A stretch of DNA of 64,000 nt from an uncultured Actinomycetota bacterium (GTDB lineage Bacteria > Actinomycetota > Actinomycetes > JAHEKZ01): the NCBI GenBank assembly GCA_963743915.1, contig CAVURN010000003.1, positions 128,001 through 192,000 on the forward strand. The letters are read 5' to 3'. Below, piece by piece: positions 1 through 56,166 of the stretch. Under the pieces are notes generated by a model that was not told the origin of the DNA, ran no database searches, and saw nothing but the letters and a program-made list of their open reading frames with translations. Each line of letters starts with the position of its first letter. The stretch's first letter is position 1. A program made the translations under genes and the position numbers.

Positions 1-658
1 AGGTGAGGCCATGCGTGTCGGACGCGTGCCAGCCGAGCTTGTCGTAGGCGGGCTCGACGACCAGGCCGGGCGTGCCGGCGGGGACGATGATCGTGGAGAT
101 CTCGGGGCGGCCGTCGTCGCGGACGCCGGTGCGCGCGGTGACCGTGATGCACGACGTCAGCGGTGTGCCGCTGTTGGTGATGAACGCCTTGGCTCCGTTG
201 ATCACCCAGTCGCCGTCGTGCAGCTCGGCGTGGGTGCGGGTGGCGCCGGCGTCCGACCCGGCGTCCGGCTCGGTGAGTCCGAACGCGGCGAGCGCGCGCC
301 CGGCGACCAGGTCGGGCAACCAGCGGCGGCGTTGCGCTTCGGTGCCGAAGGTGAGGATCGGGTTGATACCGAGGCCCACGCCGGCCGACAGGGTGATCCC
401 GATCGACTGGTCGGCGCGGCCGAGCTCTTCGATCGCGATGCACAGCGAGGTGAAGTCGGCGCCCGCGCCGCCGTACTGCTCGGGGGCGGTGAGGCCGAAG
501 AGCCCGAGGTCGCCGAGCTTGGGCACGAGGTGGGCGGGGAAGGTGTGGGTGCGGTCCCACTCGGCGGCATGCGGCTCGATCTCGGACGCCGCGAAGTCGC
601 GCACCAGGTGGCGCAGCGCGTCGTGCTCGGTGGACTGCTCGACTGTCGGTGCCGTCAT
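1..658 (-). CDS. Acyl-CoA dehydrogenase (3' end runs off the window)
   Basis: Not in the ORF track. Minus-strand ATG at 658 with GGAGG RBS reads MTAPTVEQSTEHDALRHLVRDFAASEIEPHAAEWDRTHTFP...GLFGLTAPEQYGG...LAAFGLTEPDAGSD...INGAKAFITNSG, typical ACAD motifs. Confidence 0.9.
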   Translation of the reverse strand, partial: MTAPTVEQSTEHDALRHLVRDFAASEIEPHAAEWDRTHTFPAHLVPKLGDLGLFGLTAPEQYGGAGADFTSLCIAIEELGRADQSIGITLSAGVGLGINPILTFGTEAQRRRWLPDLVAGRALAAFGLTEPDAGSDAGATRTHAELHDGDWVINGAKAFITNSGTPLTSCITVTARTGVRDDGRPEISTIIVPAGTPGLVVEPAYDKLGWHASDTHGLT

Positions 659-13259: not shown

Positions 13260-13315
13260 CTGACTTCCTCTCACCCAGGGATGTATGTCCTATGACCAGC
13301 AATCTTGGCACTGAT

Positions 13316-16004: not shown

Positions 16005-16026
16005 CGCAGCTCCTCCCTCGGTGGGA

Positions 16027-17365: not shown

Positions 17366-17400
17366 CTACGCTCCTCCGCTCCGGTATGGGCTACTGGTGC

Positions 17401-17817: not shown

Positions 17818-17921
17818 TGCTCCTCACGTCTCCTGTGTCGTGCTCACCGAGCGAATCTAGTCGGTCCCAGGCGAGCCAGTGCCACGATCGAAGGTCCCTG
17901 GCGGCACGTGTCGGATCCAGG

Positions 17922-18776: not shown

Positions 18777-18880
18777 TGCCACAGGATAGCCCCGCGCCGC
18801 CGCTTCCCACTGGAGGCAGCGTCTCGCCACTAGCGTGGCATCGAGACCATGCACTGGGCCGGACAGAGAGTGGGTGGAGC

Positions 18881-20005
18881 GTGGCCGAAACGGTCGTCAC
18901 GGCCGACCCGAGCAGCGAGCGCACCCGCTCCACACGCGTGACGGGCTGGCTGCCGAGAGCGGGCGTGCTCGCTTGGAGCTTCATCGGCATCATCGTGGCT
19001 GCAGTGATCGTCACCTCTGCGTTGGCTGCGGTAAGCGAGATCGCTCTGCCCTTGACATTCGCTGCCGTATTGGCGGTCCTCTTCGAGCCGGCGGTCCGAA
19101 GACTGGTGCATCGTGGACTCCGACCGACCATTGCTTCTGGAACGGTCGTGCTGGCGCTGATCGCACTGATGGCGGGCGTGACCGTCGCCGTCGTCAACGG
19201 CGTGACTGCTCAAGCGGATCAGATCGGTGAGTCGGTGCAGGCGGCCATCGTGCGGGCGTCGGAGACCTTCAGTCTCGACACGTCCGCGCTCGAGTCGGCG
19301 CGAGCACAGTTCGAGAGTGCTGCCGCGGCCATGGGCGGCGGGTTCCTGACCCGGCTGGTCTCCGGCGTGAGCGGCGTCATCGGGTTCGCCAGCGGATGCA
19401 TCCTCGGTGCTCTGATCATGTACTACATGCTCAAGGACGGATCACGACTTCGGGGTGCACTAGTCCGCCTGTTCGACCCGGCTGCGCAACAGGATGTTGA
19501 CGACTTCGTCGGGGACGGGTGCCAGATCCTCCGCAGCTACGGGCGCGGCCGCACAGTGATGTCTGCCATCGTCTCCTTAGTCATCACGGCGATGAGTCTG
19601 ATCTTGGGACTCCCCTTGGTCTTCACTATCGCCGTCGTGAACTTCATCGGGGGGTACATCCCCTATATCGGTGCCTTCATCGGTGGTGGCTTGGCTGTGG
19701 TGATCGCCTTCGGCGAGGGTGGCTTGGCGGCGGCGGTCATCATGCTCGTCGTGGTCCTGACCGCCAATCTCCTGCTGGAGAACTTCGTCGAGCCGAAGGT
19801 CATGGGACGAACCCTCGACATCCACCCACTCGTCGTGCTGATCGTCACCGCGCTCGGCGGCCTGCTGGGCGGAATCGTCGGCCTGATCTTGGCCGTCCCG
19901 TTCACCCTGATCGCCGCCAACGCGGTCACGTATCTGCGCAGGAGCGGCGTCTTCGCACAGGTCGCGACTCGCGCAGAACCCGCCCTGGAGAAGATGCTCG
20001 ACTGA
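18881..20005 (+). CDS. AI-2E family transporter
   Basis: YYMLKDG, FIGGYIPYIGA, LLENFVEPKVMGRTLDIHPLVV, GLILAVP. Confidence 0.92.
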   Translation: MAETVVTADPSSERTRSTRVTGWLPRAGVLAWSFIGIIVAAVIVTSALAAVSEIALPLTFAAVLAVLFEPAVRRLVHRGLRPTIASGTVVLALIALMAGVTVAVVNGVTAQADQIGESVQAAIVRASETFSLDTSALESARAQFESAAAAMGGGFLTRLVSGVSGVIGFASGCILGALIMYYMLKDGSRLRGALVRLFDPAAQQDVDDFVGDGCQILRSYGRGRTVMSAIVSLVITAMSLILGLPLVFTIAVVNFIGGYIPYIGAFIGGGLAVVIAFGEGGLAAAVIMLVVVLTANLLLENFVEPKVMGRTLDIHPLVVLIVTALGGLLGGIVGLILAVPFTLIAANAVTYLRRSGVFAQVATRAEPALEKMLD

Positions 20006-20055
20006 CGGAACGGGCGTTCCGTGGGATGGACCCGGCGCATACGCGGGGCCGTTTC

Positions 20056-20481
20056 TCAGCCGCGTTCGGCGAGCGCCTGCTCGAGCAGATGGCGGTCCTC
20101 TGCGCCGAGCCACAGCTCGTCGAGCGGACGCCCGCCAGCACGGCCGATGGCGTCCACCAGCCCCTGCGCCCAGAGGTGCTCGAGCAGCACGACCACCGCC
20201 ACTCCGCCTTCCGGCACCGCATCGGCCAGCGACCACGAGTCCAGTGAGTCTGCCGTCGGCGTCGTGGTGCCGTCCGCACCCAGGAGCCGCCGAGCGACGG
20301 CGCCCTTCGGCAGGCCCTCGACCTCGAGGACGTCCAGGTCGCCGGAGGGGCCCCGCTTGACCACCAGCGCGTCGACGAGCCTCGCGATCCCGGCGTCCTC
20401 GAGCCGTCGGGCCTCAGCCAGTGCGTCGCCGGAGAACCGCGGCTCGTCGTACCCCAGGACGAGCACCTGCACCGGGCCCAT
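20056..20481 (-). CDS. DUF6325/DUF1269-like protein
   Basis: MGPVQVLVLGY..L..AGIARLVDALVVKR..VVVLLEHLWAQGLVDAIGRAGG. Confidence 0.75.
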   Translation of the reverse strand: MGPVQVLVLGYDEPRFSGDALAEARRLEDAGIARLVDALVVKRGPSGDLDVLEVEGLPKGAVARRLLGADGTTTPTADSLDSWSLADAVPEGGVAVVVLLEHLWAQGLVDAIGRAGGRPLDELWLGAEDRHLLEQALAERG

Positions 20482-40520: not shown

Positions 40521-40605
40521 GCCGAGTGCGGTGCTGGTTGACGGCTCCGCCGTCAACCAGCACCGCACTCGGCAGGCTGTGACGTCAACCAGCACTGCAC
40601 TCGGC
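40521..40605. repeat. REP-like element, copy B (hairpin plus extra right arm)
   Basis: GCCGAGTGCGGTGCTGGTTGACGG-loop-CCGTCAACCAGCACCGCACTCGGC plus CGTCAACCAGCACTGCACTCGGC. Confidence 0.9.
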
Positions 40606-40612
40606 GGGCCCT

Positions 40613-40882
40613 TCAGCCGGCGAGGATCTTGGCCTTCTCCGACTCGAACTCGGCCTCGGTCAAGATGCCCTGAGCCTTCAGCTCACCAAGCTCCTTGAGC
40701 TTGGTCAGCTTGTCGTCGCCGCCGGACGCCGGAGCGGCCGCTGGCGGCGGAGGGGGCGGGGCCTGCTGCTGGTCCTGCTGTGCCCACTTGTTGGCCTGGC
40801 GGCGGGACACGTTGTTGGACACGTGGGTCGCGGTACCGGCGATGACCGCCGTGCGGGCGACGCCTCGGATGAGACCTGGCAT
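40613..40882 (-). CDS. SHOCT-domain protein
   Basis: [55 protein letters not shown]. Confidence 0.9.
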
Positions 40883-40900
40883 GAGCGGCTCCTTGTCAGT

Positions 40901-41344
40901 TCAGTCTTCGATGCCGAGCGCGGCGAGCAGCGCCTGGACCGGGATTCGTCCGGCGGCCACCAGCTGACCGCCGCCACGCCGCACCGCTGCCGCGAACGGC
41001 GCCGCCCAGCGGTTCTCGTACACCAGCAGGGCGGCCGAGCTGCCGCCCTCGACCGCCGCGGCGGCCTCGTTGATGTCGTCCTCGCCGAGGATGCCCGAGG
41101 ATGCGCCCTCGAAGATGGCCAGGTCGAGCGACCCGTCACCGTCGAAGTCGGCGATCTCGACGACCGCCACCGAGCCGTCCTCGGCCTTGGTGAAGAACAC
41201 CAGGTCGAGCAGCCGGATGATGCCGCGGTCGACCAGATCGACCAGGATCGGCAGTCCCTCCCCAGTCATCCTGTTGCCGGGGAACTCCACGACGATGTAG
41301 TCGATCGGTCCCAGCTCGTCCACGCTGACATCCGCGATGCTCAT
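40901..41344 (-). CDS. DUF6325-family protein
   Basis: LGPIDYIVVEFPG..LVDRGIIRLLDL..LLVYENRWAAPFA..GGQLVAAGRIP. Confidence 0.85.
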   Translation of the reverse strand: MSIADVSVDELGPIDYIVVEFPGNRMTGEGLPILVDLVDRGIIRLLDLVFFTKAEDGSVAVVEIADFDGDGSLDLAIFEGASSGILGEDDINEAAAAVEGGSSAALLVYENRWAAPFAAAVRRGGGQLVAAGRIPVQALLAALGIED

Positions 41345-41376
41345 CGAGGGCGCCTTCCTGTTCTCGAAGTGTGGTC

Positions 41377-41781
41377 CTAGACCTTGGTGATGTCGCGTCC
41401 GTGCGCCGTCACCGACCAGATGATGAAGACGTTGAGGATGATGATGATGATGCTCCACCACGGCTGGTAGGGCAGCCACAGGAAGTTCGCCACGGCACTG
41501 AGCGAGGCGATGATCACGGCCAGGGTGCGGGCCCAAATGGCACCCTGCAGCAACGCAAGGCCGGCCAGGAACAGGATCACGCCCATGAGCAGGTGGATCC
41601 AGCCCCACGTCGTGGTGTCGAACTTGAAGACGTACTCGGATCCGATGACGAAGGTCTCGTCGTTGACGAGAGCCGCGATACCGGCGAAGAACTGGAAGGA
41701 GCCGACGATCATCAGGATCACGCTGGCGAACATGCTGCCGGCGACTGCGGCGCCGCTGTACCCACTGCTTTCGGACGACAT
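41377..41781 (-). CDS. 4-TM membrane protein, DUF7144-like
   Basis: FASVILMIVG.FQ..GIAAL..TTWGWIHL..WAR..NFLWLPYQPWWS. Confidence 0.85.
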   Translation of the reverse strand: MSSESSGYSGAAVAGSMFASVILMIVGSFQFFAGIAALVNDETFVIGSEYVFKFDTTTWGWIHLLMGVILFLAGLALLQGAIWARTLAVIIASLSAVANFLWLPYQPWWSIIIIILNVFIIWSVTAHGRDITKV

Positions 41782-41863
41782 TTGTGCCTCCTCGAACGTC
41801 CGGCCCCCTACCGGTGGCCATGAGCCTGCCCTGTCATGGTCCAGCGACACAAGTACCGACACA

Positions 41864-41880
41864 TCACCCCGATGGGATCA
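41864..41880. promoter_or_regulatory. 17-bp TCACCC-N5-GGRTSA site 1
   Basis: TCACCC CGATG GGATCA, 83 bp upstream of ATG 41781. Confidence 0.6.
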
Positions 41881-41896
41881 ACAACCCGACGGCAGC

Positions 41897-44103
41897 TCAG
41901 ACGCTGGGCAGCAGGCCTCGCGCTCGCGCTCGTTCGACGGCGTCCCCCCGTGAGGTCGCACCCAGCTTGCGGTAGATGGAGATCGCCTGGCTCTTGACCG
42001 TGTGCCGGGACAGGAACAGTGCCTCGGCGATCTGCGGGAAGGACAGGTGGGTCGGCAGGTACTGGAGTACGCGCAGCTCTGCGGTGCTGAGGGTCTGACC
42101 CGCCTCGTCCGCCGCGTCCACGCCGAGAAGATCCTCCGTCTCCGCCAGAAGAGCCGTCAGCACGGCCGACCCCTGACCGTCGCCGAAGAGCTCCTTCGCC
42201 TCCTGCAGCAGGACGCGCGCTCTTCTCGGATCATCCAGATGCAGCCACACTTGCGCGAGCACCAGGCGACCCTGGATCGCGAACCAGGGGAGGCTCGGAC
42301 CGATCAGAGCGGTGAGGCGCAGGGCGTGGTCGGCCTCGGCCCGAGCCTGGTCCCGGCGTCCGGCAGCCAGGTGCACCCGGGCCAGGGTCGTGTGGATGAC
42401 CGCCCCCGGCGGCAGGTACTGCAGCTGGTGCGCGGCCTGGATCTTCGACGCCCGCGCCGCCAAGCCATCGGCCCGCATCCAGGGCCTCGGTCTGCAGCGC
42501 CAGCATCGCTTCACCGGCGAGGGCGAAGGCGAGCAGGTGCGGCACCGGCACCCGCTCGGACAGATCCCTGCACGAGACCAGGTCCGCGGCCGCCCGCTCC
42601 TGACGTCCGAGCAGGCTCTCCGCGCTCGCCCGCAGGTAGTACGCGACCGTGAGCCAGGGCTCCTGGTCGGAGAAGCCTGCGATCGCGCGGCTCGTCCTCT
42701 CGACCATGCCGTCGAGTCCGCCGACACCGAGGAAGGCCTCGAGGATCGCCAGGTCGAGGTGGTAGCGGCCGCCCGCCGTCCTCATGCGCGACCCGACGGC
42801 TCACCGCCGCCGCGTAGTGGGAGATGCGCTCGGCGTCCCCGACGTGCGAGGCAGTCCACGCAGCGGTGAGCGCTAGTCCGCACTGCGCCTCCAGCCGCTC
42901 TTCGGGGATCCCGTCGATGAGGCGCTGGACCACGGAGTACTTGCCGGAACCCAGGAGCAGCCCCGAGTGCTCCCAGACGAGGTCGCCGAGGAAGCGGTCG
43001 TCGGCACACTGGCGGGCGTGAGCGACAGCAGGCTCCAGCTCACCGGCGTCGGCGTACCACTCGGCGGCGGCTCGGTGCGCGGCGTGGAACCGCTCGGTGG
43101 AGCGGGCACGTAGCTCACTGCGGAGGAAGTCGGAGAACATCTGGTGAAGCCGGAACGACTCGCCGTCGCCACGGACATGCCCAATGAGCTGGTTGTGGGC
43201 GGCGAGGGTTCGGAGCCGAGCCAGCGACCCGGGGGACCCGGAGACAGAGTCGCAGATCGGTCCGGACAGCTCGTCGAGCACGGAGACCGACATGAGGAAC
43301 GCCGCGTCGGACTCGGAGAGGGCGGCGAAGAGCTCGTCACGGATGTAGTCCGACATCCAGCTCGGCGCCCAGGCCGAGGGGTGGGTCTCGGCAACGAGCT
43401 CCGGCGAGGTCAAGATGGCGCGTCCGAGAAGGTAGACGCCGATCGGCCAGCCCTCGGTGAGCTCGACCACCCGCTCCAGCTGATCTCCGGGCAGGTGCAC
43501 CCCGAGCTCGTCCAGCAACAGCTGCGTCTCGTCGTCGTCGAGCGCGAGATCGTCCGAAGCGAGCTCAAGTGTGCGGCCGGTGCTGCGCAGACGCCGGATC
43601 GCCTGCGGAGTCTCTTCGCGACTGGCGACCACGATCTGCGAGCCAGCGGGCAGAGCGGCAGCAAGCGACGCCAGCAGTGCGTCCGTCGTCGGGTCGGTGA
43701 CGTTCATGGCGTCGTCCAGCACCAGGACGAAGGGCTCGTCCTGGCTGGCGACCATCCGTTCGAGGGACGGCAGCACCACCGAGAACCAGAGCGCGGAGTC
43801 GTGCACCACGGGCAGGGCTGACAGCCCCGGCGCCGGCCCCGACAGCTCGACGGCCAGTCGCTCCGCCAGCATGGCGGCGTTCGTCCCCACGGGGAGGGCG
43901 AGCCAGATGACCCGTCGGGGCTGGCGCTGCGTCCACTGGGCCACGAGGGTCGACTTGCCGTAGCCACCGGGTGCACTGAGCGAGATGACCCGCGCGTCGG
44001 CCGCGGCGTCCAGCCGCTCGAGCAGCCTCGTCCTGGGGACGACAGCTGAGGGCGGAACGACCGGGGCCGATCCCGCCTGGACGGGGCCCGGGCCGAGACT
44101 CAC
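41897..44103 (-). CDS. MalT-like large LuxR regulator (frameshifted)
   Basis: VPRTRLLERL, APGGYGKST, LVLDD, TEGWP, FRLHQMF; C-terminal LSTAELRVLQYLPTHLSFPQIA..SRHTVKSQ..IYRKLG. Confidence 0.9.
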
Positions 44104-44191
44104 GCGCCAAAGGGTAGAGGAGCGGCGCTCGCGCTGCGCCTCGGCGTCAACGAGGTGTGCACTCACCGGGTCTCGGGTGTTGGATCGGGAG

Positions 44192-45113
44192 ATGCTGCTC
44201 GATCCTCGGGAGGTGCCCCTCGGCGGGCCGCGCGCGATGCTCGTGCGTCGCACCCTTCCGCACAAGGCCATCCGGACCATCGGCGCGTTCTGCTTCGTCG
44301 ACCACTACGGCCCGAACCGCGGTGAACCCATGGTCGTCCCGCCACACCCGCACACCGGCCTGCAGACCGTCTCGTGGCTGCTCTCGGGGACCATCGACCA
44401 CCGGGACAGCGTCGGCTCGGTGCAGCGGATCCACCCCGGTGAGCTGAACCTCATGACCGCCGGTAGCGGGCATCGCGCACTCGGAGTACTCCGTGGGCGA
44501 CGACGCCTTGCACGGCGTCCAGCTCTGGGTCGCGCTGCCTGAAGACACCAGGCACCAAGATCCCCACTTCGAGCACCATGCCGAACTGCCCACGACCGCT
44601 CGCGACGATCTCGAGGTGCGCGTGGTCATGGGTGATCTGCTCGGCCTGCGTTCGCCGGCCGCGACCTACTCGCCGCTGGTCTGTGCCGAGCTCCGCCTGC
44701 GGCCCGGAGACCATCGGCTGCCGGTCGAGTCGGAGTTCGAGCACGGGCTGTTGCTGATCGACGGTGATCTGGTGGTGGACGGGACCCCAGTCCCTCGCAC
44801 CGCGCTCCTGCACCGCTCGTCGGGGACCGATGCGCTTGACCTCGCGTCGTCCGGCGGCGCCACGGCTCTGCTGATCGGTGGCGAGCCGCTCGCCGAAGAC
44901 CTGCTCATGTGGTGGAACTTCGTGGGTCGGACGCACGAGGAGATCGTCGCCGCCCGGGACGCCTGGGCCTCCGGTCGCTTCGCCCCTGTGGTGGACGACG
45001 CGAGGGACCCGCTGCCGGCGCCGGACCTTCCCGGCGTCCGGCTGAAGCCACGGCCCAACCGGCCTGTCCGTCCGGAGGGAGTTGCCGACTCTATACCCCC
45101 TGGGGTATTCTGA
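44192..45113 (+). CDS. Pirin-family protein (frameshift near 44470)
   Basis: IGAFCFVDHYGP, PHPHTGLQTV, HRDS, MTAG, QLWVALP, MWWNFV. Confidence 0.9.
45093..45108. promoter_or_regulatory. CsoR/CstR-family operator
   Basis: ATACCCC-CT-GGGGTAT between TTGCCG (-35) and TATTCT (-10), upstream of a Cys-rich peptide. Confidence 0.75.
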
Positions 45114-45145
45114 CGCGACCTTCCGACGACCGAGGAGAGCGAAGC

Positions 45146-45262
45146 ATGTGCAGTCCTGCCCGATGCCGCGGATGCGGAAAGACCACCTGGTCCGGCTGCG
45201 GAAACCACGCCGACCAGGTCCTCAGCTCCGTCGCACCGAGTGACCGCTGCGGCTGCCGCTGA
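45146..45262 (+). CDS. 38-aa Cys/His-rich peptide
   Basis: MCSPARCRGCGKTTWSGCGNHADQVLSSVAPSDRCGCR; GAGGAG RBS. Confidence 0.8.
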   Translation: MCSPARCRGCGKTTWSGCGNHADQVLSSVAPSDRCGCR

Positions 45263-45272
45263 GCCGCCCAAT

Positions 45273-45323
45273 GCCGAGTGCGGGGCTGGATGACGTGGAG
45301 CGTCATCCAGCCCCGCACTCGGC
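45273..45323. repeat. REP-like element, copy C (perfect 23-bp stem)
   Basis: GCCGAGTGCGGGGCTGGATGACG-TGGAG-CGTCATCCAGCCCCGCACTCGGC between convergent genes. Confidence 0.9.
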
Positions 45324-45347
45324 GGGCTTTTCCGGTCTTTGGTGTGG

Positions 45348-45722
45348 CTAGCTGAGGGCCTTCGCCTTGATCGAGTCGAACTCGGCCTGGCTGATGGCGC
45401 CGGAGTCGAGCAGCTCCTTGGCGCGCGCGATCTGGTCAGCAGGTGAGCTGCCGGCCGCCTCGCGGATGTAGGCGTCCTGGGCCTGCTTCATCTCGGTGGC
45501 TGCGGCCGCGTTGCGCTCGGCCATGCCGTGGCCCCGGACGATCAGGTAGATCAGCGCGGTGAGGAACGGGATGAAGATCAGAGCGAAGACCCAGATCGCC
45601 TTGACGAAGCCATTGGTCTCCTTGTCGCGGAACAGGTCGCTCAGGATCGAGAAGAGCACCATCAGCCACGCGAAGAACAGGAACGAGATGGCGATGAACC
45701 AGACGATGTCCCAGAAGCTCAC
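45348..45722 (-). CDS. PLDc_N-like TM hairpin plus SHOCT domain protein
   Basis: DLFRD...KAIW..LIFIPFLTALIYLIVRG.GMAER..SPADQIARAKELLDSGAISQAEF. Confidence 0.88.
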   Translation of the reverse strand: MSFWDIVWFIAISFLFFAWLMVLFSILSDLFRDKETNGFVKAIWVFALIFIPFLTALIYLIVRGHGMAERNAAAATEMKQAQDAYIREAAGSSPADQIARAKELLDSGAISQAEFDSIKAKALS

Positions 45723-45805
45723 AGGACTACCTTTCTGACAGCGACGGACACCCCGACGGCACCCGATCGGGGCTCATGCTCCCACAGGAGCCGCGCCATA
45801 CCCCA

Positions 45806-45822
45806 TCACCCCGGCGGCATGA
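45806..45822. promoter_or_regulatory. 17-bp site 2
   Basis: TCACCC CGGCG GCATGA, 84 bp upstream of GTG 45722. Confidence 0.6.
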
Positions 45823-45832
45823 AGCGCCCCGC

Positions 45833-47993
45833 TCAGCCCCGGGGCAGGTCCTGCCGGTGCCCGGCGGAAGGCAGGTCCTGCCGGTGCCCGAGGCGCTCCA
45901 GCCAGCGGACGAACTGCCGGTGGATGTTCTCCGCCCCCCAGATGCGCCCCGCTGGGTCGGTGAGGTCGGCGTCGACGGTCCACGCGGCCGGGTGCACCAC
46001 CATCGGGAAGGTCTGCCAGCCGCCGAGTCCGCCGTGGCAGCCCACGAGCTCCTCGAAGGCCGCGACCTCGTCGAGGCTCTCGTTGTAGAACGAGTTCAGG
46101 TAGACGTCGGGAGCGTCGGGGAACTCGGCGATCCGCAGCAGGTCCTCGCGGGCGTGGGCCTCGAAGCCGGACAAGCGGGTCGTCACCGGTCACCTCTCCG
46201 GTGCGCAGGTCCATCGAGCCGTGCTTCCCGATCACCACCGGACCACGCTCCGACATCACCGTGGCGAATCCGACTCCGGGGTGGGCGACCAGACCGGCGA
46301 CCAGACCCGGGTACGCCTCCTCGAGCTGGCCGAGGTGCTGCCTTCCCGGCAGGCGGGGAAACCAGACTCCCCCGAGGTTCCCCGACCCCACGACCACCAG
46401 GGCCGGACGTTCGGCGTCCGGGCCGCCTGCCGCCTGCTTCTGCTCGGCGACCGGTCCCAGGGCGCTGTCGGAGTCCCGCCTCTTGGTCACGCGTCGGGCG
46501 ACCTTGGCCGACACCGACTGCTGCTGGGCGAGCTGGCCGACGAGCACGTTGACCGGTCCCCACGCCTCGACGTCAGCCAACGCCTCCACGCCGGCGCCGC
46601 CGTCGTCCATCAGCGACTCCACCAGCTGCTGCAGCGTCATGCCGTACCGCTGCTTGAAGGTGGCGCCCTGGCTCTGCCCGTGGTCGGAGACGAGGACGAT
46701 CTCGTACGGACGCGGAGTGATCCCTGAGCTGGCGACCCGCTCGAGCGTGGACACGACGCGGTCGAGTCCGAAGAGCGCATCGGTGGCCTCGCGCCGCACC
46801 ACGCCGGCGTGGTGGGCGATCTCGTCGTAGTCGACGTAGTCGACGTAGATCGACTTCGCGCCGCGCATCATCGACTCGACCACGAGCGCGGTGTTGAGGT
46901 CACGCAGCAGCACGTTCGTGACGCCACGCAGCAGCACGTAGCTGCCGTGCCGGTCGATGCGGGGCTCGATCCCACGCCGCCGCTGCTGGCGAGCCTGGTA
47001 GAGCTCCTTGAGCATCTCGCCGATCGTCATCACGAACGCGCGCGCGAAGCCGGCCGGGTGCGTGAAGAAGGCCGCATACGACTGCGACGGGCCGAGCCCG
47101 GATCTCGGCTGCTTCATGCCGCTCATCGTCAACAGGGAGACCGGGGCGTCACCGGAGAAGAGGTTGCTGATGCTCACCCCGTCGTCGGCCAGCAGTCCTC
47201 GTCCGTCGCTGACCCGCGACTCGATGAGTGCGGCGTCCGGTGGGTGGTTGGCGACGACGAGCTCGCCCCGCTCCTTCTCGTACCAGCGGAACGCCGGGAT
47301 GTTGTCGTTGTTGCCGTGCAGGATCCCCGCCTGGCTGACCGGTGTCGTGCTCGGCAGCGCGGTGTTCCACGCGTCCATGCGGTGCGTGCCCGTCCGCAGC
47401 CAGCGACTGATCGTGGGCACGTTGCCGGCCAGCACGTGCCAACGCAGCACCGCTTCGGGTACGCCGTCGAGCTGCAGGAACAGCACCCCAGGCTGGTCGG
47501 TCGGCTCCTGCTGCTCGTTGCGCATGCTCATGCGGGCGGCGTGCACGATCAGATAGTTCTGGGTGTTCACCGAGAACAGCCAGCTGATCAGGGCCAGGAT
47601 GATGCCGTAGATCCAGGACGCCAGCAGCGTCTCCCAGAAGCTGCCCACCACCATGCCTGGGGTCAGGTTCAGGATGATGTCGATGACCACCGCGTTCGCG
47701 AAGATGGCGAGCAGGATCGCTCCCACCCAGCCGAGGAAGCTCGCCACCCACGCGAGCACGACCTGCGCGAAGGGGCTCAGCAGCGAGAACAACAGCGCCG
47801 CCAGCGGGATGGACCACCACTCGTCCGGGTAGATCCCCGGTGTGAGGGCGATGGTGAAGGCCAGCACCGCCCACGTCACGACGTAGTTGGCCACCATCTG
47901 CCGAAGCGTGGAGCGGCGGTCGGGGGTCGATCGGCCGGCCAGCGCCGCTGCGAGCTTCTGCTCGCGCCTCCGTCGCTCCCAGAAGCGGCTCAT
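45833..47993 (-). CDS. 4-TM holin-like domain fused to an alkaline-phosphatase-superfamily domain (frameshift near 46180)
   Basis: N-terminal 4 TM; FLQLDG, PSTTPVSQAGILHG, YVDYDEIAHH, VSDHGQSQG, AAFEELVGCHGGLGGWQ. Confidence 0.85.
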
Positions 47994-48067
47994 GAGTACG
48001 GCGATCCCTTCTTTCTACGGGATCCCTGTGACAGGGCACCCGAAGGGTTGAGCGGGGCGCGCCTCAC

Positions 48068-48133
48068 GGGGTCACTCGCATGGGGTCACTCGCATGGGTC
48101 ACTCGCCGGGCTCACTCGCATGGGGTCACTCGC
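48068..48133. repeat. Short tandem repeat (13-14 bp x about 5) containing two copies of the 17-bp site
   Basis: GGGGTCACTCGCAT units; TCACTC GCATG GGGTCA at 48072 and 48112. Confidence 0.85.
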
Positions 48134-48635
48134 CGCCTCGGCGGGAGAGGGCGTCGATGCAGACGGTGATCGCCAGCAGCAACGGGACGTTCTGCTCGCC
48201 CTCGACCTCGACCCCGTAGGTGTCCCTGACCCGGAACCACTTGCGCGAGACCTCGGCCACCTGGTCGCCGTCACGCTCGATCTCGTACTCGTGGTCGAGG
48301 AAGTTGCCCTTGGCCGTGTAGTCCTCGCCGTCCTCGAAGTCGACGACGTACCGGTCACGGATGCCGAGCAGACGCTTGTGCACCTTCGCCTCACGCCCAC
48401 CGATCTCGATCGTCATCGTGTCGCGGATCGCGAGCTTCTTCTCCTTGATGGTGGCGAGCTCCTTGCCGGACGCGTCCTCGAGGACGAACGTCTCTCGGAA
48501 ACGCACGGCCTTTCCGTCGACCTTGTACACCTTCTCGCCGTCGGAGTCCTCGACCCAGAAGTCGTTCCCGATGTCGAAGACCTTCTCGCGCATGCAGAAG
48601 GTGCGCTTGGTGGGCTTGTCGCGCCGTAGTCCCAT
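48126..48635 (-). CDS. LURP-one/scramblase-like (Tubby C-terminal fold) protein
   Basis: MREKVFDIGNDFWVED..YKVDGK..GNFLDHEYEI..VAEVSRKWFRVRDTYGVEV. Confidence 0.85.
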   Translation of the reverse strand: MGLRRDKPTKRTFCMREKVFDIGNDFWVEDSDGEKVYKVDGKAVRFRETFVLEDASGKELATIKEKKLAIRDTMTIEIGGREAKVHKRLLGIRDRYVVDFEDGEDYTAKGNFLDHEYEIERDGDQVAEVSRKWFRVRDTYGVEVEGEQNVPLLLAITVCIDALSRRGGE

Positions 48636-48689
48636 GGCTGTCCCTTCGGTTGCTACCGGGACCGTACCGGGGGTTGGGCGTGGCGCGAA

Positions 48690-48706
48690 TCACCCTGCCG
48701 GGGCGA
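48690..48706. promoter_or_regulatory. 17-bp site 4, central in a divergent promoter
   Basis: (A)TCACCC TGCCG GGGCGA(T); TACGGT 23 nt away on the minus strand and CAGGGT 22 nt away on the plus strand. Confidence 0.65.
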
Positions 48707-48767
48707 TGCCGGTGTGGTCGATCGGAGGCAGGGTATGGAGTAGGGCACTACTACCAAGGAGGACGAC

Positions 48768-48935
48768 ATGGCCGAGGCCACGACCGCAGACCGGCTCGAG
48801 ATCGTCGAGGTGCCCGAGCTTGCCGACCTCGAACAGGCCAAGAGCCGCGGGCTGCTCAAGGGGATCCTGATCGCGGCCGGAGTGGCTATCATCGCGGCGG
48901 CGATCGCCACCGTCTTCAGTCGGCGCTCCGGCTAA
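48768..48935 (+). CDS. 55-aa tail-anchored small membrane protein
   Basis: AAGGAGG RBS; MAEATTADRLEIVEVPELADLEQAKSRGLLKGILIAAGVAIIAAAIATVFSRRSG; below the ORF-track cutoff. Confidence 0.75.
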   Translation: MAEATTADRLEIVEVPELADLEQAKSRGLLKGILIAAGVAIIAAAIATVFSRRSG

Positions 48936-48969
48936 GCCCCTGGCGTCGTGAGACGCGAAGGAGGCGCGG

Positions 48970-50160
48970 GTGCCCGATCCGCTCACCAGCCTCTTCGTCG
49001 TCATGCTGGTGGCAGCAGCGGCACCGATCGTCACGCGACTGCTGCCGGACGCCGTGCCCCAGGTCCTCGTCCTGCTCATCGGCGGAGTCCTGATCGGGCC
49101 AGAGGTGCTCGGGTGGGCCGAACGCCCTGACATCGAGCTCATTGCCCAGGTCGGCCTCGGACTTCTCTTCCTGCTCGCGGGCTACGAGCTTCCGCCGTTG
49201 CTGCTCCGCCAGCGGACCGGACGCCTCGCCCTCTACGCCTGGCTCGTCTCCGTCGTGCTGGCGATGGCCATCGTGGGACTGCTCGAGCTGGCCGGCCTGG
49301 TCAAGACGTTCGTCCCGGTCTCCCTGGCCCTCACCACGACGGCGCTGGGGACGCTGCTGCCGATCCTCCGCGACAACGGGATGCTCACCGGACCGATCGG
49401 CTCCTACATCTTCGCCGCCGGAGCAGTCGGCGAGCTCGGTCCCGTTCTGGCCATCTCGATCTTCCTGGGCGCGAACGGGTCCTGGCAGTCTCTGCTGGCC
49501 ATCCTCGCCATCGCCGGCGTCGCCTACGTCCTCGCCCGACTCCCCCGCCACCTGGCGGGTACGCGACTCGGTGAGATCGTCGCGACCACGCAGGAGGCGA
49601 CGTCACAGTCGGTGCTCCGCGCCACCATCTGCCTGCTCCTCGGCGCCCTGCTGCTCACCCGGGACTTCGGCCTCGACATCGTGCTCGGCGCCTTCCTGGC
49701 CGGAATGATCCTCAAGGGCTCCAGCGACACCCCCGAGGCGCAGCACGAGCGCCTGCTCGACAAGCTGGACGCGGTCGCCTACGGCTTCTTCATCCCGGTC
49801 TTCTTCGTGTTCTCCGGGATGGGGCTCGACCTGGCGTCGCTGGCCGACAACCCGGTGCGCCTGCTCGTGTTCTTCGCCCTGATGCTGCTGGTCCGCGGCG
49901 GCCCTGCCCTGTGGGTCTACCGGAAGGACCTCCGGTTGCCCGAGCGGGTCGAGCTGATGCTGCTGTCGGCCACGGCGCTGCCGCTGATCATCGCCCTGGC
50001 CGAGATCGGGCTCGAGAACGGCACGATGCTCCCGGAGAACGCGGCCGCCCTGGTCGGCGCCGGCGCACTGACGGTCGCGGTGTTCCCGTGGGCCGCCACC
50101 TGGGTCCGCGATCGCCACCGACCCGAGACCGCTCCGGCCACCGCCTCTGACCTGCGATAA
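48970..50160 (+). CDS. CPA2 cation:proton antiporter
   Basis: GVLIGP..LG, GLLFLLAGYE, TTALGTLLPILRD, LGAFLAG, FFIPVFFV.SG, ATALP. Confidence 0.92.
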   Translation: MPDPLTSLFVVMLVAAAAPIVTRLLPDAVPQVLVLLIGGVLIGPEVLGWAERPDIELIAQVGLGLLFLLAGYELPPLLLRQRTGRLALYAWLVSVVLAMAIVGLLELAGLVKTFVPVSLALTTTALGTLLPILRDNGMLTGPIGSYIFAAGAVGELGPVLAISIFLGANGSWQSLLAILAIAGVAYVLARLPRHLAGTRLGEIVATTQEATSQSVLRATICLLLGALLLTRDFGLDIVLGAFLAGMILKGSSDTPEAQHERLLDKLDAVAYGFFIPVFFVFSGMGLDLASLADNPVRLLVFFALMLLVRGGPALWVYRKDLRLPERVELMLLSATALPLIIALAEIGLENGTMLPENAAALVGAGALTVAVFPWAATWVRDRHRPETAPATASDLR

Positions 50161-51658: not shown

Positions 51659-54600
51659 TCACAGCGCCAACGGCTCGGCGGGCTGGACGCCGAGCCGTTG
51701 GCGTGCCCCGGCCACCAGCACCTCGACGGTGCGGGGTGCGACGAACAGCGCCCGCGCGACGTCGTCCACGCAGGTGCCGGAGTCGAACAGCTGCAGTGCC
51801 CTCAGCTCCAGCTCTGTCACCGTCTCGCGAGGGGTCGGCGGTCGAGGTGGCGTGACACCGCTGGCGGCGAGCCTCTGCGCAACCTGTTCGCGAAGACCGC
51901 CTGCCCGGCACTCGTCCACGATCTCCAGTGCGCGTTGCAGCGACGTCGCCCGTTCGTCCGCGTCGGACGTCAGCTCGGCGAGCACGAGCAGGGCGCGCAC
52001 CTGCTCCAGTGGCCGAGGCTCGGTCACGGTCACCGAGTGCCGTGCCAGCTCGACGGAGGCGTCGAGCTCCGCGAGTCGTCGCTCGATCGACCCGGTGACC
52101 ACCGGTGCACCCCAGTGCTCGGCCCGCTGCAGCTCGACGCGCAGGATCGCGCGCGCGGCGTCCTTCTCCCCCTGCGCGGCGAGCGCGTCGGCCCGGAGCA
52201 GTCGAGAGGTGTCCCAGCCGGGGTTGTGCATGCCGATGACCTCCGGCAGGAAGGTGTCGATGACGTCCAACGCTCCGGACCGGTCACCTTCGGCGAGCAG
52301 CGACCGCCGCGTGCGCCACGTGCAGCAGCCTGCGTCCCGTCCCGATCCCGGGAGCGGCCAGTGCCCGGTCGAGCAGGTCACGCGCACCGGTGAGGTCGCC
52401 CAGGTCGAGAGCGATGAGGACGAGCACCGCGTCGCAGAGCGGCACACCGATGGCCGCAGACCCCCACTCCTCGGTCTCGTAGCGTGCGCTCAGCACCGCT
52501 TGCTGGGCCTCGCGCAGCTGACCACCGAGCCACAGCGCGACTCCGCGCCACAGGTGCAGACCCACCGTGGACGTGTCGCCTCGCGCCTGAGCGCTCGCCA
52601 TGGCCGCGCCCCAGTGCTCGGCGGTGTCCTCTCCGGCGATGATGAGGGCGATGCCGGCCACCTCGTAGAAGACGTCGGCGGCTCCGGTCTGCCAGGTCGG
52701 GTCGTCGAGGGCGCCCCGGAGCAGGTCGAGCATCCGTTGCCGGTCGGTGCCCCTCAGGCTCAGCTCGAACGCCTGCTCCACCGCGAGCATCCGAGCGCCG
52801 AATCCCGACGGCGTCACGTCCAGCTCGCCCATCCAGCGGTCCGGGGGCAGGTCGTGGATCCACCCGGACACCTTGGCCAACGCGATGAGTGCCTGACGCT
52901 GGTCGACGGCGTCCGCCGGCAGCTCGGTGACGGCCGACAGGGCGAATGAGGTCGCCTCACCCTCGGTGCCCACGAAGACCAGCGCGCTGGTCAGCCACAG
53001 GGCGATCTCGCCCCGCTGCTCGACGTCGGTGCAGAGTGCGTAGGCCCGTTCGAGCGTCTGCCGGGCGAAGACACCGTCACTCGTCCCGCCGAGGACTGCC
53101 GTGCGCACGAGCAGGTCCACGACATCGTCCTCCGGTGGAGGCTCCTCCAGGGCGCGACGCAGGAACGTGGTTGCGGCTTCGAGCGAGCCGCGCGACTCCG
53201 CCTGGTCGGCTGCGCGGAGGAGAAGATCCACCGTCTCGGGTCGTCCCCGCCGCGGGGCCTTCAGCAGATGCACTGCGACCTGCTCAGCAGGGTGACCGGA
53301 GTCGAGCAGCAGCTGTGCAGCGCTCTCGTGCAGGGAAGCCTGCTCCCCCGCGCCCAGTGACTGGTAGACCGCCTCTGCCACCAGAGGGTGCACGAAGCCG
53401 AGGGGGTACTCGTCGGTGAGCAGCTCGGCCCGCGCCAGCGCGGCCACGGCGTCCGCCACGTCCTGCTCGGAGGCGCCGACAAGAGCGGCGACGACGGGCA
53501 GCTCGGCCCGGTCACCGAGGACCGACACGGCTTTGGCCACTGCGCTCGCCTGCCCGGGAAGGCGTCGGAGTCGCAGCGTCACGAGGCTGCCGATCGCCCG
53601 CGAGCCGATGGCGATCACGGTCTCGGCGTGAGCCGCGTCCGGCTTCACCTTCTCCAGCGCGAGCGCTCGGAGCAGCTGGAGAAGCAGGAGGGGATTGCCG
53701 TCGGTCGCCCGGTGGCAGGCGTCGACAAAGGTCGGTGCGGCGTCCTTGCCGAGACGGCCCCGCACGAGCTCCGCCGAGGCCTGCGGCGACAGTCGGCCGG
53801 GACGGATGACGGTCGTATGCGGGTCGCCGGAGATCTCGGCGAGCAGCCGGTCGTCCGCGTGTGGCTCGCCGCTCCGGACGGTGCCCGCCACGACGACGCG
53901 CGAACCGGACAGCCGTTTCAGCACGAAGGTGAGGAACCGGAGGGAGCTCGTGTCGGCCTCGTGAAGGTCGTCGATCGAGAGCAGCACCGGTCGTTCCCCG
54001 GCTGCGGCCGCCACCAGTCGTGACAGACCCTGCAGCTGCCGGTACGAGTCGCCGGCCGTCGCCTCGTCCGCCCGGTCGAAGACGGCCCCGACGGAGGGTC
54101 CGAGCTCGACCAGGAGATGCTCGACCTCGGGCTCGTCGAGCAACGGTTCGAGCATCTGGCGCACCACTCCGAATCCGAACTCGTGCTCCATCGCGCTGCC
54201 CCGCGCCTCGAGCACCAGGAACCCCGCGTCCGCTGCCTGCGTCCGCATCTCGGCGAGGAGCCTGGACTTGCCGATCCCCGCGGGCCCCTCGACGACGACG
54301 AAGGCGCCCTGCCCGGCTGCGGCCCCGTCGAGGCAACCCCGCACCTGGGAGACCTCCGCGTCGCGGTCCACAAGGGGGTCGACCGCGGCCACCACCGCAG
54401 TCGGTCGAGCCATCGCTGGTGGAGGGGGTGGCGGCGGCGCGTCCAGATCGGACGCCTGCGCCAGCACGTCTGCCTCGAGCTGACGCAGGGCGGGGCCGGG
54501 GTCGACGCCGAGCTCGTCGGCGAGCAGCTCCCGTGCCCGACGGAGCGCGGCGAGGGCGTCGGCCTGCCGTGAGGAGCGGTAGAGCGCCAGGGCCAGGAGG

Positions 54601-55202
54601 CGCCAGTACTCCTCGTGCAGCGGGTCGTCGCTGGTGAGCCGCTCCAGCTCCGGGACCAGGACGCGGTGCTCTCCCGCGTCCAGGCGGGCGGCGAGCAGCT
54701 GATCGCGCGCGACCTGACGCAGCCCGTCCAGCCGGGCCGCCTCCGGTCGCGCCCAGTCCTCGTCCGGGTAGTCGACCAGGGCCGGTCCGCGCCAGAGGGC
54801 AAGAGCCTGCTCGAGGTGCGCCACCCGACGAGGCCCGGGAACCGATCCCGCCTCGTCGAGCAGTCGCTCGAAGCGCCACGCGTCCACCGCCTCCGATTCC
54901 GCGTCGAGCCGGTACCCGGTTCCCTGGCGGACGATCACCTGCGACTGCGCGGTCTTGAGCCGCCCGCGCAGACGGCTGATGTGCGAGTGCAGAGTCGAGG
55001 TGGCCGCGGGGGTGGGGCGGTCACCCCAGATCGCGTCCATCAACCGGTCTGCCGGGACAGCGTCCCCCCGGGCCAGCACGAGGAGCGCCAGGACGCTCCG
55101 CGGTTGGAGTCCCCCGAGGTCGATGGGGTCCCCGCCACGCGTCGCCACGACGGGGCCGAGGATGCCGATCTCGAGCCGAGCAGTGTCTGCCGTGACGGAC
55201 AC
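51659..55202 (-). CDS. AfsR/SARP-type regulator (wHTH-BTAD-AAA-TPR-LuxR), frameshift near 52350
   Basis: ILGPV..LALL, VDAWRF, ALALWRGPAL, PLHE, LGVDPGPAL, GPAGIGKS, IDDLH, TDGNP; C-terminal VARALFVAPRTVE. Confidence 0.9.
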
Positions 55203-55308
55203 CTGGCCTCCTCCGGACAACCGCACCTCGCCGAATGGCGGCAGCCTACGTCTGCACGTCGAGTGCACCAAGGTGTCGAGTGCGGAGCTGATGGACGTCA
55301 CAGCCTGG

Positions 55309-56166
55309 TCAGTTCTGGGGCTGTTCCTCGCAGGAGGTGGCCTGGTCGCCGCTGTCGTAGTGGCAGGTGTCGGTGCCCGCCTGCCCGTCGACCACGTCGG
55401 CCGTGAGGTCCTGGTCATAGGTCTCGAGGGAGTCCCAGCCGGCACCGCCGCGCACCACGTCGGTGTCGTTGCCGACAGTGTCGAGGATCTGGTCGCTCCC
55501 GGCCCCACCGATGAGTCTGTCGTCGCCACCGACGAAGTCCCCGACGTAGAGGCTGGGACGGAAAGGGTCACCCGTGCCGCGCCCCCCGGCGCCCGAGAAC
55601 ACGTCGTCACCCATCGCTCCCTCGAAGGCGACCTGCTCGACGCTCCTCAGCCGCACATCGGCGTCCACGCCCGTGGTCTCGGTCGGGTTCAGGTTGAGCA
55701 GATGATCGCCCTGCTTGGTGCCGGCGCGGACGGTGCTGCCGGCGTCGTAGGCACGGATCTCGAAGTAGTCCGATCCTTCACCGAGAGCGACGTCGAACTC
55801 GATCTCGTCCGAGCCTCCTGGCTCCGCACCTCGTCCAGGAGTGAACGGTCCGCCGTCGAAGTCGATGACGACCGCCTGCTCGGACGACCCACCGCGGACG
55901 ACGACCTTCGAGATGTTGGACAGGTCGGCAACCTTTCCGCCGGGGGACGTGCACAGGTCCGCATTGACGAGGAGCTCCTCGTCCATCGAACGCTCGAAGG
56001 CCACAGAGGCCTCGATGCCCTTGACGTCGACACGGACGACGCCGGTGTCGGCGGCGTATGAGCACGTGACGACGGAGGCAGCGTCGGCTGTGCCGACGAG
56101 GATGGGGAGGGTGAGCAGCGACGCGGCCACCAGGGCAGTCCGGCGCCGAAGGGTGGACATGTTCAT
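55309..56166 (-). CDS. Secreted protein with RTX/hemolysin-type Ca-binding repeats
   Basis: Signal peptide ending ADA; GGDDRLIGGAGSDQI, GGAGWD, GQAGTD. Confidence 0.8.
   Translation of the reverse strand: MNMSTLRRRTALVAASLLTLPILVGTADAASVVTCSYAADTGVVRVDVKGIEASVAFERSMDEELLVNADLCTSPGGKVADLSNISKVVVRGGSSEQAVVIDFDGGPFTPGRGAEPGGSDEIEFDVALGEGSDYFEIRAYDAGSTVRAGTKQGDHLLNLNPTETTGVDADVRLRSVEQVAFEGAMGDDVFSGAGGRGTGDPFRPSLYVGDFVGGDDRLIGGAGSDQILDTVGNDTDVVRGGAGWDSLETYDQDLTADVVDGQAGTDTCHYDSGDQATSCEEQPQN

Follow-up and report, generated by a model that had tools for sequence, protein, structure and literature searches.

A palindromic regulon of this type is already published from Actinoplanes sp. SE50/110, in which the MRLGR island carries a box, TCATCC-5nt-GGATGA, that overlaps the -35 region, and encodes a MalT-type activator (Droste et al. 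2020, PMC7567727). Of 23 start sites, 17 are preceded by the box at a distance of 34.4 +/- 1.0 nt, and deletion of the malT gene brought 42 of 51 genes down while its overexpression brought 39 up (PMC7567727). Targets in table S3 of that study include SHOCT, DUF1269, AI-2E, DAG kinase, class II GATase, MFS, YihY and DUF308 proteins. No function has been agreed for this regulon since 2020, and it was thought to be confined to Micromonosporaceae. Related half-sites are known from E. coli MalT, whose box is GGA(T/G)GA (box positions as cited in PMC7567727), and from the group I box of BldM in Streptomyces venezuelae, TCACcCgnncGgGTGA, which has TCACCC/GGGTGA half-sites in 16 bp with a 4-nt spacer (PMC4125116). 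No binding site is given in the consulted part of a Streptomyces LAL paper (PMC3282765).

We analyzed a 64,000-nucleotide stretch (the window) of the genome of a sediment actinomycete (G000), the assembly of which is 90% complete. The original prediction proposed an undescribed regulon here, with a MalT-like LuxR protein acting on four promoters of membrane-protein genes. “Undescribed” does not hold, because this box and geometry, this regulator family and several of the target families are already in print for Actinoplanes, together with results from deletion and overexpression. All four proposed 17-mers were located, and their distances of 83, 84 and 79 bp to the start codons of three genes, as well as the five -10-like hexamers 22-24 nt from the sites, match the description. 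The similarity of the 79-84 bp distances means little, because box-to-start-codon distances in other genomes range from ~30 to 250 nt (mode 60-80). Pfam searches agreed with the target domains SHOCT, DUF6325, DUF7144, PLDc_N with SHOCT, holin_4_2 with phosphodiesterase, LOR and Na_H_Exchanger, with holin_4_2 at 27.3 bits slightly below its 28.8 cut-off. The features are as follows.

40613..40882, minus strand: SHOCT protein, 89 aa (Pfam PF09851)
40901..41344, minus strand: DUF6325 protein, 147 aa (Pfam PF19850, 53 bits)
41377..41781, minus strand: DUF7144 membrane protein, 134 aa (Pfam PF23636, 149 bits)
41836..41841, minus strand: predicted -10 element GACCAT, 22 nt after box 1, the modal spacing in 178 oriented sites
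41864..41880, minus strand: box 1, TGATCC-CATCG-GGGTGA then TG, heading the DUF7144-DUF6325-SHOCT operon; score 15.9
41897..44103, minus strand: MalT-type STAND regulator (NTPase, TPR-like sensor, LuxR HTH), short clade, ~734 aa, two frameshifts
45348..45722, minus strand: PLDc_N + SHOCT membrane protein, 124 aa (Pfam)
45776..45781, minus strand: possible -10 element GAGCAT; its 24-nt distance from box 2 exceeds the modal spacing by two nt
45806..45822, minus strand: box 2, TCATGC-CGCCG-GGGTGA then TG, heading PLDc_N-SHOCT; score 18.9
45833..47993, minus strand: fusion of a Holin_4_2-like membrane domain with a phosphodiesterase domain (Pfam), one frameshift at 46175
48072..48088, minus strand: proposed site, not accepted as a full box; it belongs to a tandem repeat located at the stop codon of LURP
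48126..48635, minus strand: LURP-one-related (LOR) protein, 169 aa (Pfam PF04525, 83 bits)
48690..48706, between divergent LURP and peptide-CPA2 genes: box 3, TCACCC-TGCCG-GGGCGA; score 18.4
48768..48935, plus strand: 55-aa peptide with a C-terminal hydrophobic segment, without a family match
48970..50160, plus strand: cation/proton antiporter, CPA2-like (Na_H_Exchanger; Pfam), below the TIGR00932 cut-off

Three of the four proposed boxes, at 41864, 45806 and 48690, fit the pattern aTCAYCC-N5-GGRTGAtg. Scoring used a weight matrix derived from other genomes and run over 2,917,622 positions of G000, of which 7, 2 and 4, respectively, score as high or higher, placing all three among the top seven. 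The boxes are degenerate, with 2-3 differences from the published TCATCC-5nt-GGATGA consensus, and two of the three have no A/T centre; no exact match to TCAYCCNNWNNGGRTGA was found in G000. Judged by sequence, -10-like hexamers lie 22, 24 and 22/23 nt downstream of boxes 1, 2 and 3, which would agree with the box-to-start-site distance in Actinoplanes, and two of the three boxes combine TG with the modal -10 spacing. Box 2 is intergenic once the frameshift at 46175, missing from 4/4 short-read runs, is accounted for. The best fit of box 3 is to the plus strand, with TG and then CAGGGT at 48729-48734; on its minus-strand side is TACGGT at 48661-48666. The 20-kb bin of the window is the sole one of 144 with three sites scoring at least 14, and 135 bins have none. 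A count of the originally proposed pattern in the window (4 matches vs 0.89 expected) was a circular test and was discarded.

The fourth proposed box, at 48072, was rejected. It scores 7.0, as do or exceed 196 genome positions, and sits within a 14-bp tandem repeat (48068-48133), 42 nt of which are skipped by contigs of 4/4 related short-read runs, leaving a 4-nt spacer. Direct control of the holin-phosphodiesterase gene from this site found no support in its homologues, none of which (0/5) has an upstream site; its transcription more probably comes by read-through from the promoter of LURP. The pirin gene, the holin-phosphodiesterase gene and other genes of the window assembly are frameshifted, like the regulator gene.

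The boxes of G000, those of the window included, lie on contigs C2 and C3 in at least five places. Further ones precede DUF2252, SulP-DAGK-PAP2 and a 436-aa membrane protein, with a weaker one before gadB, and all of these families are targets in other genomes too. Homologues of target families without a box in G000 are two DUF1269 genes, AI-2E, ClC and cydAB. For a second DUF6325/AI-2E/DUF1269/dipeptidase cluster (window 12.7-20.5 kb), a box was sought and rejected, the only match being in coding sequence at 17093.

The regulator had been taken as a single gene frame at 41897-44103, which it is not: frameshifts lie near 42790 and 42460. These are probably assembly insertion errors, because short-read contigs across the gene, which are low in depth and inform on indels through gap counts only, lack 2 nt in three runs and 1 nt in a fourth, which covers only one break. 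A pseudogene is disfavoured, since other genes are frameshifted too and the extra bases are absent from the short-read contigs. The protein has a STAND architecture, namely a P-loop NTPase with a winged helix, a repeat sensor and a C-terminal LuxR HTH, with Walker A G..GKST and EGWP motifs and AAA_16, TPR_MalT and GerE domains; the TPR_MalT match is partial (30.4 bits, below the 45 cut-off). An intact relative, L036, matches the MalT structure 8bob with an E value of 5.7e-22. The regulator belongs to a short clade (~730 aa) that is distinct from a long clade with support of 0.997. Relative to a ~890-aa orthologue of ACSP50_3915, assigned through gene order in other genomes rather than from the strain's own sequence, identity is 27-28% over the NTPase portion and 44% over the HTH, and the recognition helix reads RHTVKSQA vs VNTVKTHV in this long-clade protein. 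The region upstream of the regulator gene has no box (best score -7.4).

Across genomes, we observed the same motif with conserved sequence, orientation and spacing, co-occurring with the regulator. The N5 palindrome is enriched ~20-fold in the surroundings of 120 homologous regulators: TCACCC-N5-GGGTGA with at most one mismatch has a density of 97/Mb across 80 regulator loci and of 71/Mb across a further 40, vs 4/Mb in G000. Spacers of 1-4 and 6-11 nt yielded 0-13/Mb in both locus sets. A zero-spacer (N0) variant, which we did not find in print, reached 16-29/Mb in both; the idea that it is tied to two-component genes of the islands was rejected (3/12 vs 22/128, p 0.45). Seed sites were intergenic in 134 of 150 cases, though 82% of that DNA is coding. 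Of 178 oriented sites, 127 have ANNNT at +23..25 toward the gene and 13 have it on the opposite side; for TG after the box the corresponding numbers are 121 and 15. The modal distance to the -10 element is 22-23 nt on the gene side, the far half-site is as strongly conserved as the near one, and the 5-nt spacer is strict. The original reading of the palindrome as a site in activator position is supported, and the site is conserved. No site scoring at least 14 was found at 14/80 and 8/40 regulator loci. Among 400 genomes of the phylum, in which kin are not independent, two or more copies of the exact pattern are present in 18/23 genomes with a short-clade HTH vs 28/377 others, and DUF6325 is present in 15/23 vs 25/377.

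The window boxes recur before homologous genes in part. Upstream of DUF7144, sites score 23.1 (L036), 20.7 (L035) and 23.0 (L043); the other 16 of 19 homologues have no upstream site, several being internal to operons or having the N0 variant. PLDc_N-SHOCT homologues have sites of 14.6 (L036) and 22.5 (L035), with none upstream of four others. The 55-aa peptide has homologues in L049 and L050 (53-57% identity) with upstream sites of 15.9 and 16.7, the former shared with a divergent gadB. LURP is part of a site-headed operon in 3/6 loci, and the CPA2-like antiporter gene has gadB directly after it in relatives L034, L036 and L038. Islands with MRLGR gene order contain DUF6325-SHOCT, DUF7144 and holin-phosphodiesterase genes, and PLDc_N was found in one island (G474); LURP, the 55-aa peptide and CPA2 are unnamed in the published Actinoplanes target table (S3).

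Our combined findings suggest that this region is, with good probability, a satellite part of a regulon of MRLGR type, the boxes of which are bound, and the promoters activated, by the short-clade MalT-type STAND protein. This MalT-like LuxR is the likely reader of the palindrome, as originally proposed, and we infer direct binding. The protein would bind an inverted pair of MalT-like half-sites, TCAYCC-N5-GGRTGA, with the gene-side half-site at roughly -40 to -35 in a promoter of housekeeping type that has a poor -35, retaining TG alone, and a TANNNT-like -10 22-23 nt on. From this position the bound protein would activate transcription, presumably by multimerising in response to ligand and ATP, like E. 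coli MalT.

Could the reader of the boxes instead be a long-clade MalT paralogue that the assembly lacks, or a long/short hetero-oligomer, with the short-clade protein accessory or acting at another site? We consider this improbable. The sole experimentally tested activator maps to the long clade by synteny, both clades occur within one island at 11/99 loci, and deletion of the second Actinoplanes MalT-like gene had only slight effects (unpublished data mentioned in PMC7567727). Moreover, the same-genus genomes G003 and G006 carry a long-clade gene, which could be absent from G000 through incompleteness of the assembly. However, when 15 genomes were searched with the long-clade protein, 9, including G000, yielded one MalT-like gene each, and 7 of these, within the phylum sample and 94-100% complete, have 1-4 exact boxes apiece with the short-clade gene only. 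We did not find in print this separate clade as the sole MalT-like gene of several box-bearing genomes. In addition, 60/69 short-only loci have a site, and the site centre is A/T in 208/240 sites at short-only loci vs 25/71 at long-only loci. It is very improbable that the reader is a response regulator of BldM type, or another of the NarL family, with its gene elsewhere, even though the BldM box has the same half-site (PMC4125116) and NarL-type regulators are present at 24/120 loci, with five in G000: the BldM spacer is wrong, spacer 4 not being enriched (7.8 and 11.1/Mb vs 97 and 71/Mb for spacer 5), presence of the box follows that of MalT-type genes across genomes, and the Actinoplanes island falls silent once MalT is deleted (PMC7567727). 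We give little credence to GGRTGA-TG being the -35 of an alternative sigma factor, with the palindrome incidental; the fixed distance to the -10-like element and the extra conservation (TG) on the gene side only would fit, but the equally conserved far half-site, the strict spacer and the housekeeping-like -10 do not, and no sigma factor was found among 75 recurring-cluster representatives scanned. Chance matches in 70% GC DNA explain site 48072, and 30 G000 positions score at least 12, many before unrelated genes or within genes, but for the three remaining boxes chance is scarcely credible and is refuted by their score ranks in the genome and their clustering in one bin; two of them also have TG and the modal -10 spacing.

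Recurring targets across loci include glutamate decarboxylase, GadC, arginine deiminase (arcABC), ClC and DUF308, a set that we did not find in print and that suggests a role in acid or stationary-phase fitness. GadB and/or ClC were present at 25/120 loci only. The originally proposed ion/pH programme gains comparative support from these targets, but stays hypothetical because the Actinoplanes island rose in growth at controlled pH 6.7 (PMC7567727). An envelope and ion-balance programme for acid or stationary phase is the most likely purpose, a tentative choice. The system extends to Thermoleophilia, Acidimicrobiia, Chloroflexia and Acidobacteriota, a spread also not found in print. A doubtful but broader possibility is that MRLGR is one example of a regulon for acid or stationary-phase fitness that is widespread among bacteria of soils and sediments (Actinomycetota, Chloroflexia, Acidobacteriota), in which several ligand-sensing STAND clades would use one half-site in differing promoter layouts, with DUF7144, DUF6325, DUF1269 and SHOCT as the membrane core and a signal other than maltotriose for the short-clade sensor. 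The short clade would read N5 centred on A/T and the long clade N5 with no such preference, whereas proteins with an ENTVR[TS]HRR helix, and others, would read a palindrome of zero spacer together with a third half-site. One regulon now links the DUF7144, DUF6325, DUF1269, DUF2252 and SHOCT families of unknown function, and the weight matrix with its orientation rules, a second clade that is apparently sufficient alone and the target list make the sensor ligands and acid protection by the island testable questions.

In E. coli, the LuxR-type activator GadE is associated with gadB, gadC, DUF308/HdeD-like and ClC genes in glutamate-dependent acid resistance. The resemblance to that system is functional only, as regulator architecture and site are unrelated and most targets here are uncharacterised membrane proteins. 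BldM shares the half-site and a LuxR/NarL-type HTH reader, but has a 4-nt spacer, is an orphan response regulator and has developmental targets. With E. coli MalT the STAND architecture and a similar half-site are shared, as is the 22-nt distance to the -10 at malP, where the promoter reads GGATGA-22 nt-CAAACT and we take CAAACT to be the -10. Window-type regulators are nevertheless only ~23% identical to MalT and ~170 aa shorter, L036 reaches 183 bits against the MalT equivalog (PRK04841; cut-off 537), and the repeated boxes of MalT are replaced by an inverted pair with no maltose genes among the targets. Relative to Actinoplanes MRLGR, the window regulator falls in a separate clade and is not the ACSP50_3915 orthologue, and a single 51-gene island, whose regulator gene lies in an operon headed by a box, contrasts with scattered loci in G000 and an unboxed regulator gene; the two systems share the box, a MalT-like LuxR among the targets and the SHOCT, DUF6325, DUF7144 and holin-phosphodiesterase families.

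The original prediction held that a MalT-like LuxR regulator in the window acts on a recurrent 17-bp palindromic box (two 6-nt half-sites, 5-nt spacer; N5) at four promoters of membrane-protein genes. On re-reading the sequence, the four 17-mers, their start-codon distances and the -10-like hexamers were all as described, and Pfam upheld the gene families. The features lie in G000, an actinomycete genome of 2.9 Mb (70% GC, 90% complete):

41864, box
41897-44103 (-), MalT-type STAND/LuxR regulator
44190-45113 (+), pirin gene between regulator and PLDc_N-SHOCT, with a frameshift (44465) in the assembly only
45806, box
46175, break in the holin-phosphodiesterase gene
48072, claimed site within a tandem repeat
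48690, box

Near-identical DNA occurs in 14 DNA data sets, 13 of them sediment metagenomes. Two frameshifts interrupt the regulator reading frame; contigs from three short-read runs are 2 nt shorter over this region, and those from a fourth run, which spans one break only, are shorter by 1 nt. One base is likewise missing in contigs of four short-read runs at both the pirin and the holin-phosphodiesterase breaks. We read the frameshift bases as assembly insertions, so that the intact regulator is predicted to have about 734 aa. Contigs from these four runs also pass over 42 nt of the tandem repeat in which site 48072 lies.

The box was evaluated in 80 loci around regulator homologues (the best 80 of 513) and in 40 loci drawn from 400 sampled genomes of the phylum, with at least two loci common to both sets. 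With at most one mismatch, TCACCC-Nx-GGGTGA peaks at x = 5, with 97 and 71 sites per Mb, respectively, versus 4 per Mb in G000; across both sets, spacers 1-4 and 6-11 gave 0-13 per Mb and spacer 0 gave 16-29. Run without a seed, a search for inverted 5-mer pairs placed TCACC-7 and CACCC-5 in its top ten, the remaining top-ranked pairs being taken to come from coding sequence. A simple gene caller put 134 of the 150 seed sites between genes. With the trained weight matrix, aTCAYCC-nnWnn-GGRTGAt, the density of intergenic sites is 1173 per Mb in the second set versus 35 in G000. Sites scoring at least 14 occur at 66/80 and 32/40 loci; these include one Acidobacteriota locus and two of the three from Chloroflexia. 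The seven best matrix positions in G000 include 41864, 45806 and 48690 but exclude 48072; of the four predicted sites, three are valid.

Among 178 sites flanked by a gene on a single side, TG comes after the box on the gene side in 121 and on the far side in 15, while the -10 pattern ANNNT starts at +23 to +25 downstream of the box in 127 versus 13, most often at +24 (87). This places the end of the gene-side half-site near -35. Sites 41864 and 48690(+) fit this layout exactly; 48690(-) deviates from it by one base and 45806 by two. In the E. coli malP promoter, GGATGA lies 22 nt ahead of CAAACT, which we take to be its -10.

A zero-spacer variant, TCACCCGGGTGA (N0), is found intergenically before the same target families at 11 of 184 loci; this layout precedes DUF7144, PLDc_N, DUF6325 and SHOCT genes at L033, L041, L047, L083, L182, L185, L186 and L201. 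Five N0-rich loci (L033, L041, L047, L186, L201) have no N5 site. ANNNT starts here at +40 to +42 in 22 of 29 oriented cases, the -10 standing at +40/41, and in 10 cases a third half-site (GGRYGA, 11 nt on) stands at +12, so that the 22-23 nt distance to the -10 is kept. All three loci whose regulators carry the helix ENTVR[TS]HRR have the variant, as do some with other regulators; all of these counts are small.

A regulator HTH of at least 57 bits (a threshold placed where the scores show a gap, with up to 13 candidates scored per genome) was found in 23 of the 400 sampled genomes. One or more exact copies of TCAYCCNNWNNGGRTGA are present in 22 of these versus 96 of the 377 others, and two or more in 18 versus 28; DUF6325 is present in 15 versus 25. 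Related genomes are not independent in these counts, so that Fisher values exaggerate the association. The reversed control pattern occurs at least twice in 6 of 400 genomes. These denominators include six unpublished genomes, three of which contribute one match each, and our claims are independent of them. G000 itself has no exact TCAYCCNNWNNGGRTGA. Twenty loci centred on DUF6325 genes or boxes came mostly from genomes other than the 23; six of them have a longer MalT-like gene beside the boxes. In a tree of 74 of 154 regulator proteins, the window protein belongs to a short clade (about 670-770 aa, one member 880 aa; support 0.997), apart from a long group whose members mostly have 800-920 aa. 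The window gene is the only MalT-like gene found in G000, and a short-clade gene is the sole one recovered in seven other box-carrying genomes; its congeners G003 and G006 (same genus as G000) have a long-clade gene. Separately, genomes G119, G324 and G427 carry 15, 5 and 5 exact boxes, respectively, without a short-clade HTH above the cut-off.

The target census covered 120 loci, where 424 of 2120 called genes stand in box-headed operons.

Gene families (loci with the family in a box-headed operon/loci with the family)
DUF7144, 24/42
DUF1269, 19/31
DUF6325, 17/22
SHOCT, 15/32
arylsulfatase, 13/29
DUF2252, 11/28
DAG kinase, 10/15
PLDc_N-SHOCT, 10/18
glutamate decarboxylase, 8/12
ClC, 7/15
SulP, 6/9
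cytochrome bd, 4/12
holin-PDE, 3/9
LURP, 3/6
SDR, 1/14
ABC, 0/9
MIP, 0/7

Boxes of G000 outside the window (contigs C2 and C3)
C2:48542, before DUF2252
C2:576182, before a 436-aa membrane protein
C3:206782, before gadB-YrhK-GATase
C3:281782, before SulP-DAGK-PAP2

The target decarboxylase scores above the GAD equivalog cut-off. In same-genus relatives, gadB follows a homologue of the window's CPA2 gene at three loci (in one case after an intervening MFS gene), and at two loci lies beside the counterpart of the window's 55-aa peptide and its box. The G000 gadB, 15 kb past the window, has a half-good box, TG and TAGGTT, and its promoter looks leaderless.

GAD/GadC and arginine deiminase are proton-neutralising systems. 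The permease at the position of ACSP50_3946, in islands of the Actinoplanes MRLGR type, exceeds the GadC cut-off (692 vs 640 bits), and the island of genome G474 holds arcA, arcB, arcC and a basic-amino-acid antiporter-like gene. Acid or stationary-phase fitness is a possible purpose of the regulon, though we put it at somewhat short of an even chance. Against the acid reading, GadB or ClC occurs in just 25 of 120 loci, single queries placed GadC, ADI and DUF308 in 0 of 120, and most targets have no known pH link. In addition, the Actinoplanes island is described in PMC7567727 as maltose-responsive and as rising while cultures grew in reactors controlled at pH 6.7.

MRLGR-type "amino acid permease" genes above the GadC equivalog cut-off lie at L271:3054-4448 and L253:13280-14671, in islands with no gadB called. 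The window itself has a second cluster of MRLGR-type families (12759-20481), without an intergenic box:

12759-13259, DUF1269
amino-acid permease
M20 dipeptidase
DcuA/B transporter
AI-2E
20056-20481, DUF6325

With the MalT activation model, as outlined in the accessible part of PMC4381067, as template, a small ligand would bind the repeat sensor of the regulator, and the NTPase module would then open and multimerise. Two HTH domains would bind the inverted half-sites, with the gene-side one overlapping the -35 and recruiting polymerase. Our observations cover the DNA anatomy and the co-occurrence only.

Other features were observed in the window:

18301-18790, ORF with about seven 21-bp repeats (PTKSTAE-like), a hydrophobic tail and a weak CsbD match
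40521-40607 and 45275-45326, REP-like hairpins beginning GCCGAGTGCGG (arm pattern, 16 matches in G000)
45093-45262, palindrome ATACCCCCTGGGGTAT before a 38-aa peptide (6 strand-matches in G000)
51659-55610, downstream of an FAD oxidase gene, second large regulator (Trans_reg_C, BTAD, AAA_16) and weak LuxR-HTH ORF

ATACCCCCTGGGGTAT resembles CsoR/RicR-type operators; the peptide after it has six cysteines and no NCBIfam match, and is possibly metal-binding. As far as tested by Pfam scan, the pair at 51659-55610 has no relation to the boxes.

The regulon had been proposed as undescribed, but a system of this type is already in print. According to the accessible text of PMC7567727, Actinoplanes sp. 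SE50/110 has a 51-gene island, the MRLGR, in which TCATCC-5nt-GGATGA precedes 17 of 23 start sites at 34.4 +/- 1.0 nt. Deletion of the MalT-like ACSP50_3915 lowered 42 genes, many at least 100-fold, and its overexpression raised 39; the published comparison spans four Micromonosporaceae. Our literature search, which reached few subscription journals, found no paper on the short clade, the range beyond Micromonosporaceae or the acid-resistance reading. We identified genomes with islands in the published gene order, running from SHOCT, DUF6325, DUF1269, AI-2E, DUF7144, DUF1269, glucosidase, alpha-amylase, regulator, second regulator and YihY to GATase, metallophosphoesterase, MFS, DAG kinase, M48, DUF308, dipeptidase, permease, DUF2231, ThrE, MFS and M24, and also containing holin-phosphodiesterase. 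The regulator at the ACSP50_3915 position (887-890 aa) is long-clade, and its identity to the window protein is 27-28% over about 400 aa (HTH 44%). Thus, the window shares box, geometry and target families with the MRLGR, whereas its regulator is a paralogue. The type of system is published; what is new is the regulator clade, the range, the candidate function and the site variant.
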